A stretch of DNA of 64,000 nt from Clostridia bacterium (GTDB taxonomy: Bacteria > Bacillota > Clostridia > UBA1212 > UBA1255), in assembly GCA_017560765.1 (NCBI GenBank), contig JAFZEI010000015.1, forward strand, positions 397 to 64,396. The letters are read 5' to 3'. Shown in pieces: positions 42,344-54,587 of this stretch (position 1 is the first letter of the stretch; each line of letters opens with the position of its first letter). The position numbers were made by a program, and so were the translations under genes. The notes beneath the pieces are model-generated. The model saw only the letters and a program-made list of their open reading frames with translations, did not search any database and was not told where the DNA came from.

Positions 42344-43108
42344 TTATGCAAAAATCTTCTTTTTTGCAACTACAGTCAATGCCAAGGCAGCAATTACAAC
42401 CAAGAAAACAACACTTACATCTCCTGAATTGGGATTCTTGTTGGGATCTTGTGGCTTTGTTTCGTCTTTATCTGTGTCTGTATTTGTATCTTTATCTGTA
42501 TCTGTGTCTGTGTCGGCATCATTATCTGTATCGCCCTCACCTGCGGAAATATATGCCTGAGCTTCTTCCACAGTTTTAAACATAGCTACCCAGTCAACAT
42601 CAACTACCGCACCGCTTGCGTTTACAGGATCAATTCTAAACCATTTTACTTCGTCTACCCACTTGTCTAATGATGATCCGTCAGCAATTACATACTGCCA
42701 GTCAGTATTCTCTGCATCAATATCTCCTGTGGCACAAGCAGCTCCGCCTTTGATAAGAATCTGAAGTCTCATATTGTCTGCAGGAGTTACAATTCTCATT
42801 TTTGCAACAACTACCTTGAGAGTATTACAATCAATCGGATCTAATCCCGCACTTGTAATATCTCCTGCATGAGCGCCGGCTGATGATGTACCGGGATAAA
42901 TATATCCGTCTCCGCTCTTATCAGTTAAAGTAACATATTCATCCTCTACTTTAATTGTAGAAACAGTAGGTATTGTAAGACCTTCATCTGCGCCTTGCTC
43001 TGCACTACCTAAATCCCAAAACCATCCCGGTTCTGCTGCGAAAGCCGGAACAACACTTGCACTTAAAATAAGTACAACCATAATCATTAAAGCAACTAAT
43101 TTTTTCAT
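42344..43108 (-). CDS. Secreted/surface protein with acidic (DT)n linker and C-terminal TM anchor with KKK tail
   Basis: Signal peptide (MKKLVALMIMVVLILSASVVPAFA). The N-terminal domain is homologous to the N-terminus of the 50451..54587 protein. It ends with a DTDTDTDKDTNTDTDKDET repeat, NPNSGD, a hydrophobic segment and KKKIFA. Confidence 0.6.
   Translation of the reverse strand: MKKLVALMIMVVLILSASVVPAFAAEPGWFWDLGSAEQGADEGLTIPTVSTIKVEDEYVTLTDKSGDGYIYPGTSSAGAHAGDITSAGLDPIDCNTLKVVVAKMRIVTPADNMRLQILIKGGAACATGDIDAENTDWQYVIADGSSLDKWVDEVKWFRIDPVNASGAVVDVDWVAMFKTVEEAQAYISAGEGDTDNDADTDTDTDKDTNTDTDKDETKPQDPNKNPNSGDVSVVFLVVIAALALTVVAKKKIFA
42420..42545. repeat. Coding microsatellite-like repeat (GTATCTGTGTCTGTnTC units) encoding the (D-T/K/N)n acidic linker
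   Basis: Tandem degenerate 6-nt units are visible in the sequence. The antisense ORFs (ICICICV) are artefacts of the repeat. Confidence 0.6.
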
Positions 43109-43251: not shown

Positions 43252-44127
43252 ATGAAAGATGGATACTATTACTTTTTACCTGCCTATTTAGAAAAGGAAA
43301 AATCTAACAAATATGAAGCTGACAAGTCTTTAGGATATATTTCAATCACATGTGCTCCCGATCGGCATGTTTTTTCTATTCAATGTAGTCTAAACAAAGA
43401 TAAAATTCAGGCTATTGCCAACAGACGCACTCCGATTGAGCTTTACATAAGTCCCGTAACTTATGTAACAAACACATCTGTGTATATCGGTCGCTTTTCT
43501 CTCTCTTCTAAAAATCATTTGTTTTTAGACGCCTCCTTATCAAGCAGGCAAATACTTCCGGAAGAAGACAACCAATACATAATTGTCACTTCCGGCGGCA
43601 GAACATTGATATACTCTCTCATACAAGAAAAACGTCCCGAACCGGTTATAACCGATGAGACTCATTCTGCAAATACCTTCGGAGAAATATTTGATCCTTT
43701 TAACACTACCAATCCTGCCTATAAATGGTTTATACATTATGCCAAAAGCCAAGGCGAGCTGGAAAGAATATTCCGTACATTAAAAATACACCCGGAAATG
43801 TTCGGGAAAATTAATAACTATAATACCGGATTTTCGTCTGATACATTCATTAAAACGGCATACTACGCTCTTCGCGTAACAGGGCACATTTTGCGAGGTG
43901 AATACAGCGATCCGATAAGTGATAGATTTTTTACAGTTATAGGCTTACCCGGCTGGAATATTCGAAACAGAAAAAAATCCGCCCCTTCCATTCGCATATA
44001 CGCTCGCTGGATTACAGCCCAAAACAAGCCTGCAAAGCTTAACGCCGGCAACTACAATGGATATTGGCTATATTACTTTGATAAAGAAACGGGTTATCCT
44101 GTAAAAGCCGTTCTTAAAAATAATTAA
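43252..44127 (+). CDS. Hypothetical protein
   Basis: 291-aa ORF with an AGGAGAAG RBS-like sequence upstream. No recognisable motifs. Confidence 0.45.
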   Translation: MKDGYYYFLPAYLEKEKSNKYEADKSLGYISITCAPDRHVFSIQCSLNKDKIQAIANRRTPIELYISPVTYVTNTSVYIGRFSLSSKNHLFLDASLSSRQILPEEDNQYIIVTSGGRTLIYSLIQEKRPEPVITDETHSANTFGEIFDPFNTTNPAYKWFIHYAKSQGELERIFRTLKIHPEMFGKINNYNTGFSSDTFIKTAYYALRVTGHILRGEYSDPISDRFFTVIGLPGWNIRNRKKSAPSIRIYARWITAQNKPAKLNAGNYNGYWLYYFDKETGYPVKAVLKNN

Positions 44128-44627
44128 AGAAACATGCATACTATTCCGGCTGATATTGCCGAAATAAAATTTGCTGTTAATGCTGCCGGAAGTACTCCCG
44201 GCAATTTTCTTATTTTTGTTTTCTCTGTATACACTGCCATTGTGTAAAATATTGTTTCTGTAGAGCCCATCATTACACAAGCCGTTCTTGCTTCGTATGA
44301 ATCCGCTCCGCATTTTGTCATTATATCTCTCAATGTTGCTAAGGACGCACTGCCCGAAACCGGTCTTATAAGCACAAGAGGAAAAATTTCTCCGTTTATT
44401 CCTATTTTCTTTAGGACAGGTGATGCAAAATCCACTAAAAACTCTAATATTCCCGAATCTCTGAAAACTCCTATTGCTACAATTAAGCCTATTAAGGAGG
44501 GAACTAATTTTATTATTGTCACTGCACCGTCTTTTGCGCCTTTTACAAAACTGTCAAAGCACGCCACCCCTTTTATAAAACCTATGATAACTATTATTAA
44601 AACAAATACAGGCAATATGTATGTCAT
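44124..44627 (-). CDS. spmB: Spore maturation protein B (nucleoside-transporter/Gate-domain membrane protein)
   Basis: 167-aa membrane protein overlapping spmA by 4 nt. Matches the SpmB family pattern. Confidence 0.75.
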   Translation of the reverse strand: MTYILPVFVLIIVIIGFIKGVACFDSFVKGAKDGAVTIIKLVPSLIGLIVAIGVFRDSGILEFLVDFASPVLKKIGINGEIFPLVLIRPVSGSASLATLRDIMTKCGADSYEARTACVMMGSTETIFYTMAVYTEKTKIRKLPGVLPAALTANFISAISAGIVCMFL

Positions 44628-45208
44628 ACTTTTCCCCCTTTTCGAAAAAACAACTTATTGCATATCACAAAAACAGTTAAAGAAAAAATCATCGAAACTA
44701 TAGAAACTATCCATGTTGGGATTAAAATATCCACAGGGGCAGAGGCACCTAATTCTGCACGCATCGCAATAACTGTAGTTGGGAGTAATTGAATTCCTGC
44801 AGAATTTATTACAAGAAACAAACAAACATCTTTTATGTTATTTTGCATTTCAGCAACTGCCTCTATTCCTGAAGGTGTCGCTCCGTTTCCTAATCCAAGA
44901 AAATTTGCAGCAAAATTTGTAACAATTGCATTTTGCGCTTTTTCATTCTTTCTTGCAGACGGAAAAAGGCTCGATATTATAGGTTTAACAATTTTCGAAA
45001 ACCATTTTACAGCCCCTGCATCTTCAAGTATTTTTATAATCCCACACCAAAGGGAAACAATTCCAATTAGCCCCACCGCAAATTCTACTGCCTCCTTTGC
45101 CGACGATATAATGCTGTTCATAATCATATCTGTCTTACCCAAAGCAATGCTTCCTCCGATACCAATTATCATAAGCAGAACCCATATAATATTAAGCATT
45201 TTCATCAC
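44624..45208 (-). CDS. spmA: Spore maturation protein A
   Basis: 194-aa membrane protein. Has the SpmA family pattern (GIIKILEDAG...NFLGLGNGATP). Confidence 0.75.
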   Translation of the reverse strand: MMKMLNIIWVLLMIIGIGGSIALGKTDMIMNSIISSAKEAVEFAVGLIGIVSLWCGIIKILEDAGAVKWFSKIVKPIISSLFPSARKNEKAQNAIVTNFAANFLGLGNGATPSGIEAVAEMQNNIKDVCLFLVINSAGIQLLPTTVIAMRAELGASAPVDILIPTWIVSIVSMIFSLTVFVICNKLFFRKGGKV

Positions 45209-45313
45209 CTCTAAATCGAAACATCTTTTTAAATATATGTTTCCTTATTCGGTTATATGCACTTTTGGTTTTCCATTTTTTGGCAAATAGCACGGGAAAT
45301 ATTTCCCATAAAT

Positions 45314-45342
45314 TTGACATTATTCAACAATTTTGTTAATAT
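45314..45342 (+). promoter_or_regulatory. Sigma-A promoter of the abrB-like gene (TTGACA-17-TAATAT), followed by TTCGTCA (Spo0A-box-like) and a palindrome
   Basis: Read directly: TTGACA at 45314..45319, TAATAT at 45337..45342, TTCGTCA at 45343..45349, ACATTCAgtTGAATGT at 45349..45364. Confidence 0.5.
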
Positions 45343-45389
45343 TTCGTCACATTCAGTTGAATGTTTTTTCTATATAAGGAGGTAAAAAA

Positions 45390-45650
45390 ATGAAATCAAC
45401 AGGAATTGTAAGAAGAGTAGACAAATTAGGACGCATAGTAATTCCAATGGAGTTAAGAAAGGTGTTGAATATTTCAAATCGCGATGCAATAGAAATATTT
45501 TCTCAAGATAATACACTCATATTAAGAAAATATGAGCCTTCATGTATTTTTTGCGGTAACGCCACAAATGTAACAACATACAAGGGCATTAATATATGTC
45601 CGGAATGCATCATGAGGATGCAAAAATATATAAAAAAGAACGCAGTTTAA
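45390..45650 (+). CDS. abrB: AbrB/SpoVT-family transition-state regulator-like protein with C-terminal 4-Cys (CxxC...CxxC) tail
   Basis: N-terminus MKSTGIVRRVDKLGRIVIPMELRKVLNI is almost identical to the AbrB swapped-hairpin DNA-binding domain. The C-terminus CIFCGN-x17-CPEC is atypical. Confidence 0.75.
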   Translation: MKSTGIVRRVDKLGRIVIPMELRKVLNISNRDAIEIFSQDNTLILRKYEPSCIFCGNATNVTTYKGINICPECIMRMQKYIKKNAV

Positions 45651-45699: not shown

Positions 45700-45748
45700 A
45701 AAAAAGCCCTTGAAATTATCAATCGATAATTCAAGGGCATTTTTTTAT
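45700..45748. terminator. Bidirectional rho-independent terminator (abrB-like / tuf)
   Basis: AAAAAA-GCCCTTGAATTATC-loop-GATAATTCAAGGGC-ATTTTTTT. Confidence 0.7.
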
Positions 45749-50450: not shown

Positions 50451-53400
50451 TTATTTTGGAACTCTGTATGCAAAACGGAATTGGTTTGTACTCTTGTCTA
50501 TAGTCTCATACGAAGGTTGTACTGATCTTATTCTGGAATCACTACCCGCATCGTATCTATATGAGTAACCTCCATCATAGTCACTGGCAATAATGAATAC
50601 GTGTCTCGGATAGTTAGAATATGCAGGAGCAAAGCTTCCCGTATAACCAACGAATACAATATCACCTGCTTTAAGTGAACTCAGTGATGTTACCTTAGTA
50701 AATCCGTAGCGCAAAAGGAATGTTTCAAGACTGATAATATTTGCGCCGGAGTTACCGTAAAGTGAAAGTCCTTCTTTAGAAGGCTGATGTGCTGTATAGC
50801 CTGCATTACCCATGAGCCAACCTATAAATCTGTCACAAGATACATGCTTGTATGATTTGTCAAGATATGGGTTAACTGTAGAGTGTCCGTATACCCAGCC
50901 ATTTACTCTTGCATAGTCTGCAACAGATTTAGCATGAGTAAGAAGTTTTGCAACTTTCTGTCCGTGTTTAGCATAAACAAATGCACCGTTTTGATCATAT
51001 ACTGCATAACCTGTTGTTGAATTCTCATTTGCTTTTGCAACCGCAGCATTATAATCAGTATATACTCCGCCGATTTGCGCACCTAAATCATTCTTTACAT
51101 ACCATGAAATATTTTCTGCTGTTCTATCTGCTATAAAGAAGCGTTGATTTTCTTCGCCATAGTAAGTATAGAGTTGAACATTTGTTCCGCTTGTGTAATC
51201 TGCATTAGAAACATCCAAAGCCATTTTGTCACAATGAGCAGGACGGAAAGCATATGTTGTTTCTTGAATATACAGGTACCATTGCTGAGAAAGGCTATCA
51301 TTGCAGTTCTCCGTAACAATATTTGTTACATCTGTCACACCGGCTCCGCTTACAGCCAAAGCTTTATCATTACTCTCGTTGACAATTCTGTAAGCACCAT
51401 TGTCAAGTCGTATGAATTTCCAAAGTTGACTTGATGAAGCAGCCGGAGTAGCAAGCTGAACATTAGTACCTGAAACAGCAAGAGATTTACCTCCAACAGT
51501 TATATGCGCAAAGAAATTCGTACCAACATCTGCAGGCGTCAATTTATTAAATGTACTTGTTTGTGTATTCAAATAATTTACTGCAGCGTCACCATATTTA
51601 ATTATTTTTTCAGTGATATCAACGAGTTTTGCATCTGTACCACTCTGTGATGAATAAACATACGACTCAATGCTATATTCAAATGTTCCGCTTATTGCTT
51701 TACCAGTACTGTCACAAACAGTGAGTTTCACTGTTTTGCTCATCTGCGATGCACCTAATCCATCAAAAACAAATGCATATACAGGTGTACCGGCAGGTCC
51801 TGTTACAGTTGAAAAGGCATCTTGTTTTACAGTTCCCAACAAATTATTGCTTGTATCCGTTACCTTAACATATACATTTGATAAATCTGTATCAAAATAT
51901 CCTTTGATTGCAACTTTATTATCAAGATAAAGTCCCATCGCTAACCAAGTAGCTTTATCGCCGGAAGCTACAGTAGGCGCTTTTTTCACATTTGTGAGAG
52001 CTCTTAAATCACTTGTGCCAAATTTCTTCTGAGCTGTTGTCAAATTTGCACTAACAAGTTTGTCTACATTATATCCATTATAAATCTGTGCTGATGCTCC
52101 GTAATTAAGCATATCAACAAGCAATGTCTTAAAAGATGGATCCGTTGCCGATGCAAGTTTAGAATAAATATATGTAGCCACACTATATTGGTTCGTCTTA
52201 CTTGAATATACAACTCCGTCTTTAGTTGCTTTTAATGTTGTAAAAATAGCGTCGTTCATCATCTGAGGCGCCACGTTGTTAAATGAGAATAAATAACAAG
52301 CAACTCCGCCGACAGAGGATGTTACTGGATTAAGAGTAATTGTTTTTCCGCCAAAAGTCGCCTCAAGATAAGGATTTGAAAAACCTGCAGCATCAAAGAT
52401 ATCTTTCTTTACAAGATATTTAATTGTAATATCACTTGAAATTGAAAGTGTTGTACCATCAATTTTAAGTGCAGTGTCTTTTACTTTAACAAAACCAGAG
52501 TCTGTTATAAATTGGTCTGTAATATCAGAAGAACCTGATGTTGCACTGTTTACAGTAACCATTACATCGTTATCGCCCAAATTAGCGTTACTGTTTACTT
52601 TAAACTCTATGTAAGCAATAGTTCCGGTTGCTGTTGTGTTAGCAGTACCTTTCCAAGATAATTCATATGAATATGTTGTTTTTGTTGCTTTGAAAACAGC
52701 ATTTCCCATTACGATACCATTTGTCGCTTTTACTGGAGTCAAAACGCTTGGATCCCATTTTACATTAACTACAAGATTCTTTAATCCGGGGTTATTTCCT
52801 AATACAACAGGAACTTTTACCGTGCCGCCAATATTTGCCTCAACATCATCTGCATATATATCAGCCGATTTTGCAACATCAGTCACTGTAAAATATACCT
52901 TGCTGCCTTTTGGAGAAGTGTCTCTCATTATTACAGCATAGTAGTTACCTGCTGAAAGCCTCGGCAAGGAAACTGTCTTTTCGCCGCTAAGATTAATTCT
53001 GTGCATAGGATTTGCCGTTCCCATACCTGAACCGCACTCTTCACCATCATTATAGATACCCAACCAAAGATTGCTTGTAATTGAATCTCCGTAATTAATT
53101 GTTGCTTTAAGATTTCCTGTTTCGCTTACAGTAGTTGAATTAAGTGTAAGAGAAGGATCTACCGTACCTTCATATCCATAATATATGTTATCAATATTAA
53201 ATGCTCTGAAGCGAGAACCAATTGCCATAGATTTTACATAAGAAATCATTGCATTTGATGTTGTAGCCTTTAAATTGCCATTTGCATCATAAATAGTTGC
53301 TGTTCTGTAATATCTCTCGTTATATGCGTCTGATGAGCTTGGTAAAAGACCGGGATCAGCATAAGTTACAAATGCAAATACTTCTCCGTCAAGAGCAAAT

Positions 53401-54587
53401 CTCATTTTTCCACGTCCGTCATCTATCGCTTTGAATTTATGGAAAGCTGTATCAATATAACTTGTGAGCGGATGTGTGTATTTTATTTGAGACAAAGTTC
53501 CCGAAGCTGCATTATATGTTATTACACAAACTTCAATCATAGAAGGATGAATATTTACACTTACACCACTCTTACCTACAGAGTTTTCTCCGTCCACTTT
53601 ATTTGATTCGAAAAACTTATTGTCTTTCCAATCTTTTTCATAGCCATAATTGAATACAAATCCTGCAAAGTGACCAGCTGCTGTTTCCGGCTTTACATCT
53701 GCTGAGAATAAATAAGCACATCCGTTATTGAAGAATTTATTTACCTGCATACTGTCATATTTCAACTTAAGGTACTTATTTGTTCCTTCTACAACGTATT
53801 CGGAATCTCCTGTTCCTGCATTAAACAAGAATTCACCATTAATATTTGTTTTGCTTCCGATAAGTGCAAGACCATTCGTTACTGCAGCTTCTTGGAAATC
53901 ATATGATGTCTTTGGTACATAATGCAAACCATGAGGTATAATGTCAACTCTGCCGGATTTTACATCTGTATAAACCTTACAGAACAAATCATCATATTCT
54001 TGTGCCTGTGCTACACTGTCAAAGAAACCTATATATGCCACATCAACTGTTTTGCCTGCAACTGATGACGCACCGATTCTCATTGATGTAATTGTAGCAT
54101 TAAGCTGTGCTGATGTACCAACAGAACTTGTTGACGAACCCATTAACTCTTTTGATAAGTTGTATGTGGTAAGATTCCATACGCCGTCGCAAACCAGCTT
54201 GCTGGTAGATATAACTCCGCCTGCGGCAGGACCCCAACCACCGGCTGTTGTATCGGGATAAAGCCAAGGGTTACTGATTGATGTATTAATATCTCCCTTG
54301 TACTTAATTGCCATAATCTTACCGCTCATGCTTGTATCTACAAGATTTACTGTAAAATACGGGTCGTTAGCATCTGTCGTTTTAATGGAAACATACTCAT
54401 CTTTGTATGTGTATGTTATTCCACTCGACGATGTATCAATAATTAGTTTGTGATTACCTTCCGCAAAAGATGTTACTCCCTTGTATGAACTCAGCTCCGC
54501 TGCCAACAATACATTAGTTGAGGGCAACATACTAAATACCATCACAAAAACAAGTAACAGCGAAAGAAACTTCATTCCTCGTTTCAT
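50451..54587 (-). CDS. Large secreted multidomain protein: novel N-terminal module, cohesin-like module, ricin-B (QxW) lectin domain, C-terminal NlpC/P60-like cysteine peptidase/amidase-like domain
   Basis: Signal peptide MKFLSLLLVFVMVFSMLPSTNVLLAA. Cohesin-like stretch (GGTVKVPVVLGNNPGLKNLVVNVKWDPSVL...IAYIEFKV). QLWKF/QQWYL/QRFFI beta-trefoil repeats. C-terminal Cys...GDIVFVGY...HVFIIASD pattern. Strong RBS AAAAGGAGAG. Confidence 0.7.
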   Translation of the reverse strand: MKRGMKFLSLLLVFVMVFSMLPSTNVLLAAELSSYKGVTSFAEGNHKLIIDTSSSGITYTYKDEYVSIKTTDANDPYFTVNLVDTSMSGKIMAIKYKGDINTSISNPWLYPDTTAGGWGPAAGGVISTSKLVCDGVWNLTTYNLSKELMGSSTSSVGTSAQLNATITSMRIGASSVAGKTVDVAYIGFFDSVAQAQEYDDLFCKVYTDVKSGRVDIIPHGLHYVPKTSYDFQEAAVTNGLALIGSKTNINGEFLFNAGTGDSEYVVEGTNKYLKLKYDSMQVNKFFNNGCAYLFSADVKPETAAGHFAGFVFNYGYEKDWKDNKFFESNKVDGENSVGKSGVSVNIHPSMIEVCVITYNAASGTLSQIKYTHPLTSYIDTAFHKFKAIDDGRGKMRFALDGEVFAFVTYADPGLLPSSSDAYNERYYRTATIYDANGNLKATTSNAMISYVKSMAIGSRFRAFNIDNIYYGYEGTVDPSLTLNSTTVSETGNLKATINYGDSITSNLWLGIYNDGEECGSGMGTANPMHRINLSGEKTVSLPRLSAGNYYAVIMRDTSPKGSKVYFTVTDVAKSADIYADDVEANIGGTVKVPVVLGNNPGLKNLVVNVKWDPSVLTPVKATNGIVMGNAVFKATKTTYSYELSWKGTANTTATGTIAYIEFKVNSNANLGDNDVMVTVNSATSGSSDITDQFITDSGFVKVKDTALKIDGTTLSISSDITIKYLVKKDIFDAAGFSNPYLEATFGGKTITLNPVTSSVGGVACYLFSFNNVAPQMMNDAIFTTLKATKDGVVYSSKTNQYSVATYIYSKLASATDPSFKTLLVDMLNYGASAQIYNGYNVDKLVSANLTTAQKKFGTSDLRALTNVKKAPTVASGDKATWLAMGLYLDNKVAIKGYFDTDLSNVYVKVTDTSNNLLGTVKQDAFSTVTGPAGTPVYAFVFDGLGASQMSKTVKLTVCDSTGKAISGTFEYSIESYVYSSQSGTDAKLVDITEKIIKYGDAAVNYLNTQTSTFNKLTPADVGTNFFAHITVGGKSLAVSGTNVQLATPAASSSQLWKFIRLDNGAYRIVNESNDKALAVSGAGVTDVTNIVTENCNDSLSQQWYLYIQETTYAFRPAHCDKMALDVSNADYTSGTNVQLYTYYGEENQRFFIADRTAENISWYVKNDLGAQIGGVYTDYNAAVAKANENSTTGYAVYDQNGAFVYAKHGQKVAKLLTHAKSVADYARVNGWVYGHSTVNPYLDKSYKHVSCDRFIGWLMGNAGYTAHQPSKEGLSLYGNSGANIISLETFLLRYGFTKVTSLSSLKAGDIVFVGYTGSFAPAYSNYPRHVFIIASDYDGGYSYRYDAGSDSRIRSVQPSYETIDKSTNQFRFAYRVPK

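Follow-up and report, generated by a model that had tools for sequence, protein, structure and literature searches.

Clostridial AbrB carries a C-terminal four-cysteine module that resembles the ClpX zinc finger

Introduction

The structural model of AbrB oligomerization stems from Bacillus subtilis (PDB 2mjg; PMC4022651), of which AbrB and Abh (PDB 1z0r, 2k1n, and 2fy9; C-terminal domain, 2mjg) are transition-state (growth-phase) regulators, small proteins composed of an N-terminal DNA-binding domain and a short C-terminal domain. The C-terminal domain of B. subtilis AbrB is required for both tetramerization and function, and AbrB chimeras that carry the C-terminal domain of Abh or SpoVT still repress (PMC4022651). 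Since this domain is needed for the tetramer and yet is exchangeable, the C-terminal domain of AbrB can be considered as a modular oligomerization unit. The subject of this report is an abrB-type gene of an uncultivated Clostridia bacterium, located at positions 45390..45650 (+) of a 64,000-nucleotide stretch of contig JAFZEI010000015.1 (assembly GCA_017560765.1), hereafter referred to as the window. Like AbrB and Abh of B. subtilis, its product is a small protein with an N-terminal DNA-binding domain and a short C-terminal part, but it contains four Cys within 86 amino acid residues, whereas B. subtilis AbrB contains a single Cys within 94 residues.

Within clostridia, genetic studies have dealt with the AbrB of C. 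acetobutylicum (AbrB310), of C. tyrobutyricum (CTK_C00640), and of C. perfringens, and these proteins belong by architecture to the same family as the window protein. Clostridial AbrBs are devoid of the DNLKLAGGKL segment of the Bacillus protein and retain Cys54, of which mutation in B. subtilis AbrB abolishes the activity (PMC9598496). No mention of zinc, a zinc finger, a four-Cys motif, or a CxxC pair in clostridial AbrB was found in the searchable literature. The predicted resemblance of the tail to the ClpX zinc finger, described below, thus concerns a modest gap in the annotation of a very large and known family, and bears on solvent-producing and pathogenic clostridia, in which abrB genetics is already in use.

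AbrB protein of the window

The open reading frame (ORF) starts with ATG and encodes 86 amino acid residues plus a stop codon (protein sequence, MKSTGIVRRVDKLGRIVIPMELRKVLNISNRDAIEIFSQDNTLILRKYEPSCIFCGNATNVTTYKGINICPECIMRMQKYIKKNAV). The tail motif, C52-x2-C55-x14-C70-x2-C73, follows directly after the last strand of the N-terminal domain (..KYEP-x-C). In a preliminary description of this locus, the ORF and the tail sequence had both been given correctly, but the spacing between the two Cys pairs had been miscounted as CxxC-x17-CxxC.

The N-terminal region, which the same description had attributed to the AbrB DNA-binding domain, was indeed recognized by PF04014 with 38.5 bits (E 1e-9), above the curated cut-off of 24.7, and by TIGR01439 with 33.9 bits, above the cut-off of 28.3. 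Among solved structures, residues 1–51 matched by phmmer AbrB's N-terminal domain (2k1n, E 9e-17; 1z0r, E 1e-16; 1yfb, E 1e-16) and, more weakly, Abh (8e-14) and the N-terminal domain of SpoVT (1e-12), while the Foldseek search led to the N-terminal domains of the same three proteins. The domain had been described as nearly identical to that of AbrB or Abh; the homology stands, but the near-identity does not, because alignment to the solved AbrB N-terminal domain gave 31 identical residues among 51 (61%) for B. subtilis AbrB.

Across an alignment of 47 diverse homologues, R8, R15, and R23 were all invariant, of which R8 and R15 are among the DNA-contact arginines of AbrB. Residue 24 in the window protein is Lys, a conservative change from R24, which is, like R23, a DNA-contact arginine of AbrB (PMC9598496). 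No second copy of abrB was detected in the window by tblastn. In a metagenome collection, 228 indexed blocks contain exactly this 86-residue protein, and its neighbours were the same at the four places listed. As judged from sequence and gene order, the window gene is an orthologous, clostridial-type abrB.

Distribution of the Cys4 tail

A search for homologues over 5.8 billion proteins yielded 706 matches at E<=1e-3. The CxxC-x14-CxxC motif was present with the same spacing in 119 of the 120 best matches, the lone exception being a frameshifted fragment. In the alignment of diverse homologues, C52, F54, C55, C70, and C73 of the tail were invariant, and I53, G56, and N68 were nearly so. The conservation of the Cys motif in these sequences is far beyond what could be expected by chance.

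At least 581 relatives were detected by scanning one genome per GTDB species, from which 80 listed loci were used for counting. All 80 loci encode the Cys4 motif with the same spacing, and include those of Clostridium argentinense, Oscillospiraceae, Peptostreptococcaceae, Acidaminobacter, and Lucifera (Negativicutes), in addition to Heliobacterium, Symbiobacterium, Halanaerobium, Limnochordales, and Alicyclobacillus. The highest AbrB identity to the window protein among these loci was 67%, and the C. argentinense homologue shares CxxC-x14-CxxC with it. The identity between the window protein and clostridial AbrBs is only 55–65%, a figure that refers to clostridial proteins other than those of the model organisms themselves. 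The window clade differs from the studied clostridial AbrBs in having a longer basic end of the helix (RMQKYIKKNAV) and in the absence of a conserved Spo0A box (see below).

A database search with a profile of the tail alone, as proposed in the preliminary description, identified 1216 clusters at E<=1e-3, including 122 at E<=1e-10, among 1.84 billion cluster representatives. The last AbrB strand (..ILKKYEP) preceded the tail in all of the top 150 matches, indicating that the module is specific to AbrB. Attachment of the tail to other types of domain was considered for 31 proteins without a detected N-terminal domain among these 150, but they look like fragments or frameshifted calls. From these counts, AbrB has the Cys4 tail as its standard C-terminus in Clostridia as a whole and in several further classes of Bacillota. 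The preliminary description had not placed the protein in any described AbrB subfamily, and had considered that its tail might turn out to be common and already characterized among clostridial paralogues; it is common, but no paper characterizing it was found. The annotation is thus settled as a regular AbrB orthologue and not an exotic fusion, with the standard clostridial C-terminus and at a conserved position beside spmAB-like genes.

Some variants with different numbers of the two domains were also observed. Two AbrB N-terminal domains followed by one Cys4 tail, forming single-chain pseudo-dimers, were found in P0006, P0007, P0014, P0016, P0017, P0021, P0029, P0272, and P0344; two complete units of N-terminal domain plus tail are contained in a single chain in P0256, P0260, and P0334; and P0295 has one N-terminal domain with two Cys4 tails. 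In addition, residues 1–56 of P0011 (82 residues, on a contig of 631 nt) are identical to those of the window protein, while the remaining part of its tail is unrelated and still of Cys4 type (...CGEMGELIVYKEKKVCRNCANKINVLFE). The origin of P0011 is either chimeric assembly or recombination between paralogues.

Comparison to the Bacillus AbrB C-terminal domain

The window protein gave no match at E<=1 to PF18277, the C-terminal domain of Bacillus AbrB. In contrast, a search with B. subtilis AbrB, of which the query sequence was confirmed against PDB 2mjg, gave 120 matches within Bacillaceae, all 120 carrying PF18277 and most having only one Cys in their C-terminal tail. When the profile of the Cys4 tail was compared with that of the Bacillus tail by hhalign, no similarity was detected (probability 1.7%). 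The absence of a PF18277 match and the failure of this tail–tail comparison together indicate that the two C-terminal domains are different, as far as detectable. The earlier proposal that a four-Cys module stands in place of the Bacillus multimerization domain is in agreement with these results, and also with the structural matches described below.

In the hhalign alignment of the window protein with B. subtilis AbrB, C52 was aligned with C54, and G56 with G58. This C-x3-G, common to both junctions, leaves room for the Bacillus domain being a degenerate descendant of the Cys4 tail.

Predicted structure of the tail

The tail was modelled by AlphaFold2 with high scores of the predicted local distance difference test (pLDDT), the block means being 79–92 in the full-length model and the value 90.8 in the tail-only model. 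In the models, a CxxC knuckle (C52/C55) is followed by a beta-hairpin at residues 62–69 (strands 62–64 and 67–69) and by a second knuckle (C70/C73) at the N-terminus of a helix spanning residues 71–85. As modelled, this arrangement is a treble clef, with the four Cys ligands in positions equivalent to those of the ClpX-type C4 zinc finger.

The zinc-binding domain of ClpX is a Cys4 treble clef with its second knuckle at the N-terminus of a helix, and is a constitutive homodimer. In Foldseek comparison, the ClpX domain 2ds7 was the best full-length structural match of the tail, with a template-modelling (TM) score of 0.70 in both directions and a root-mean-square deviation (rmsd) of 1.5 A. The four Cys of the tail were all aligned with those of E. 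coli ClpX by hhalign, with a pairwise E of 8.5e-4 and a probability of 24%. The tail and the N-terminal zinc-binding domain of ClpX (PF06689; PDB 2ds5–2ds7) have C-x-F-C-G ... I-C-x-E-C in common, but the loop between the knuckles is x14 in the AbrB tail as opposed to x18 in ClpX, and the module is attached to an AAA+ unfoldase in ClpX as opposed to a DNA-binding domain in AbrB.

A further structural match was the zinc module of uS14/eS29 (Foldseek probability 0.99), with 31 residues superposed at an rmsd of about 2 A. The CxxC-x14-CxxC spacing of uS14 type Z and eS29 is identical to that of the AbrB tail, and the tail profile gave a marginal match to uS14 type Z (E 0.07–0.1) with this x14 spacing shared; the E-values are not significant, and uS14, a ribosomal RNA-binding protein, gives no hint of a function in common with the AbrB tail. 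Another of the closest known systems is the anti-sigma-G factor CsfB/Gin (PDB 5n7y), a dimer, which shows only 13% identity to the tail and has no DNA-binding domain. The structure matches of the tail were all Cys4 zinc modules. No Pfam or NCBIfam model matched the tail above the cut-off.

Proposed model of AbrB assembly

Based on these observations, the following model of assembly is proposed. As in B. subtilis AbrB, two N-terminal domains would interlock through swapped hairpins to form a DNA-binding dimer. The last 35 residues would form a treble-clef Cys4 zinc finger similar in type to the zinc-binding domain of ClpX, with C52, C55, C70, and C73 holding one structural Zn(II). Dimerization of the tail would tie two N-terminal dimers into a DNA-binding dimer of dimers, and the Cys4 tail would thereby take the part that is played in Bacillus by the unrelated PF18277 domain. 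A probability of about 60% is given to the central proposal that the tail binds one structural zinc and dimerizes, linking two N-terminal dimers into a dimer of dimers. The occupancy by zinc, the dimerization of the tail, the formation of the tetramer, and a transition-state role in the window organism are what we infer. The variants with two N-terminal domains and one tail (P0272, P0344, and P0006) would fit the geometry of a tail bridging N-terminal dimers.

Several points weigh against this model. The AlphaFold2 run was made with the 47-sequence alignment and covered monomers only. Foldseek E-values for the 40-residue tail were not significant, the best being 0.04, and PF06689 (zf-C4_ClpX) gave 14.5 bits for the window protein, below its cut-off of 27 (E 0.033); the modelled tail has the appearance of a Cys4 zinc finger of ClpX type, yet by sequence score it is not a member of that family. 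Cys4 knuckles are also capable of binding iron and of redox switching. Furthermore, the Spo0A operator that many orthologues typically have is not conserved in the window clade, and its regulatory wiring may therefore differ from the textbook AbrB circuit.

Other possible roles of the tail

The Cys4 tail might be a regulatory switch, in line with the metal- or redox-dependent oligomerization suggested in the preliminary description. If its thiolates were oxidized, or if the metal were lost or exchanged, the tail would unfold, the tetramer would fall apart, and the AbrB targets would be released from repression, and anaerobes would thereby gain a transition-state regulator responsive to oxygen or metal. 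Zinc-thiolate centres of other regulators such as RsrA and Hsp33 act as redox switches, and the distribution is in part as expected for such a role, the Cys4 form being present in the anaerobic lineages listed above and the one-Cys domain in the aerobic Bacillaceae matches. The aerobic Alicyclobacillus, however, also keeps the Cys4 form, and the closest structural matches, the zinc-binding domain of ClpX and uS14, hold a purely structural zinc, so that a switch is considered unlikely. A wider proposal, likewise doubtful, is that, among the oligomerization domains of AbrB, the ClpX-like Cys4 finger is both the ancestral one and the one most widely distributed, with PF18277 as a later replacement or degenerate descendant, and that in anaerobic Bacillota it doubles as a thiol/zinc switch coupling oxidative or metal stress to the release of transition-state and sporulation genes.

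It is also improbable that the main role of the tail is to dock a partner, for instance a paralogous AbrB, an anti-repressor, or a protease adaptor, as the ClpX domain does with its adaptors and CsfB with sigma-G. The tail is too short to accommodate a large additional interface besides dimerization, and the only conserved neighbours of abrB are spmAB-like membrane proteins, with no other gene for a partner, even though AbrB and Abh are reported to form heteromers in B. subtilis (PMC3025583).

Direct contact of the Cys4 module with nucleic acid, adding DNA specificity rather than mainly oligomerizing, would agree with the likeness to the zinc module of uS14, which is ribosomal and presumed to contact rRNA, and with the loss of DNA binding by C-terminal-domain mutants of B. 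subtilis AbrB, for which direct contact of the C-terminal domain with DNA has been proposed (PMC4022651). Outside the window clade, however, the tail is not notably basic, its helix being mostly acidic or mixed (...CLEELKK, ...CMEELKD), and the KYIKK ending of the window protein is clade-specific; this role is thus judged to be very improbable. A switch, a docking site, and a contact with nucleic acid are each compatible with the dimerization model, and are not mutually exclusive with it.

An antitoxin of the MazE/AbrB fold in a toxin–antitoxin pair or a truncated SpoVT, as might be suspected from the Pfam family name (MazE_antitoxin) and from SpoVT having the best NCBIfam E-value, can be dismissed as extremely improbable, since there is no adjacent toxin ORF, abrB being monocistronic between the divergent spmA-like gene and the convergent tuf, and since TIGR02851 reached only 53.6 bits against a cut-off of 235.9 and covered residues 2–51, while SpoVT is expected to have about 180 residues and a GAF-like C-terminal domain.

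Promoter and neighbouring genes

The abrB gene is monocistronic and has a promoter-like site as well as a terminator of its own (Table 1). The RNA fold of the terminator was estimated to be -20.2 kcal/mol (z -5.7), and none of 200 shuffled sequences folded as well; a simple terminator scan missed this hairpin because its stem is bulged.

Table 1. Features of the abrB locus, in positions of the window
Feature	Position	Strand	Remarks
SpmB-like, Gate-domain membrane protein	44124-44627	-	167 aa; Pfam Gate domain
SpmA-like, Gate-domain membrane protein	44624-45208	-	194 aa; Pfam Gate domain; divergent from abrB
Perfect 14-bp palindrome GGGAAATATTTCCC	45294..45307	.	6 nt upstream of -35; candidate operator
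Sigma-70-like promoter	45314..45342	+	TTGACA, 17 nt, TG-n-TAATAT; consensus scan 10/12, extended -10
Inverted repeat CATTCA-GT-TGAATG	45350..45363	.	Just downstream of -10; candidate operator or hairpin of the 5'-untranslated region
Shine-Dalgarno sequence AAGGAGG	45376-45382	+	7 nt 5' of the abrB ATG
N-terminal swapped-hairpin DNA-binding domain	45390..45542	+	Residues 1-51; Pfam, TIGRFAM, PDB, and Foldseek matches
C-terminal Cys4 module	45543..45647	+	Residues 52-86
Bidirectional intrinsic terminator	45700..45745	.	A-run, bulged 14-15 bp hairpin, T-run; serves abrB (+) and tuf (-)

Alignment of the abrB promoter region with those of four related contigs showed both -35 and -10 to be conserved. 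The palindrome GGGAAATATTTCCC was invariant in all five of the diverged promoters compared, of which the encoded proteins are 69–87% identical, and no further copy was found either in the window or at 80 distant abrB loci. The inverted repeat downstream of -10, in the form CATTCA-N2-TGAATG, was conserved in four of five related promoters. A single sequence like a Spo0A (0A) box, TTCGTCA, is present in reverse orientation just after -10 (45343-45349), but was not conserved in the four related promoters and was treated as a chance occurrence.

Of 78 distant loci of orthologues, about 29 had a perfect match to the 0A box (TGTCGAA) 25–40 nt upstream of ATG, at a fixed position downstream of a conserved promoter of the form TTGAC-17-TGGTAtTAT, the background being 0.13 relaxed boxes per 200 nt. 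This layout of promoter and 0A box mirrors the arrangement of abrB in B. subtilis. The recurrence of the 0A box in the distant loci supports the control by Spo0A of the AbrB family with Cys4 tail, and comparison with the window clade suggests that the Spo0A operator was replaced in its lineage.

The divergent pair of genes for Gate-domain membrane proteins was found upstream of abrB at 41 of the 80 listed genome loci and in every close relative examined, and this conserved position indicates that the window gene is a conserved orthologue and not a stray paralogue. The pair is presumably SpmA/SpmB-like, in view of the domains that make up SpmA and SpmB in B. subtilis. The spmAB genes of B. subtilis belong to the dacB operon and lie apart from abrB. 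It is possible that abrB and the spmAB-like genes are co-regulated through their common intergenic region.

On the other side of abrB, the convergent tuf is followed by minus-strand ORFs, among which EF-G and rpoB were identified by Pfam, while others were read as rpsG and rpoC by position only. Within this otherwise classical cluster, read partly by position as rpoB-rpoC-...-rpsG-fusA-tuf, an ORF for a 1378-residue protein with three ricin-type beta-trefoil lectin repeats (50451-54587, minus strand) is located downstream of the presumed rpoC and ahead of rpsG. Two other ORFs, located at 42344-43108 (-) and 43252-44127 (+), had no match to Pfam or NCBIfam. The former encodes a 254-residue protein that begins with a stretch resembling a signal peptide, contains an Asp/Thr-rich repeat (DTDNDADTDTDTDKDTNTDTDKD), and has a hydrophobic anchor at its C-terminus. 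The latter, of 291 residues, is conserved as a neighbour of the spmB-like gene among the closest relatives.
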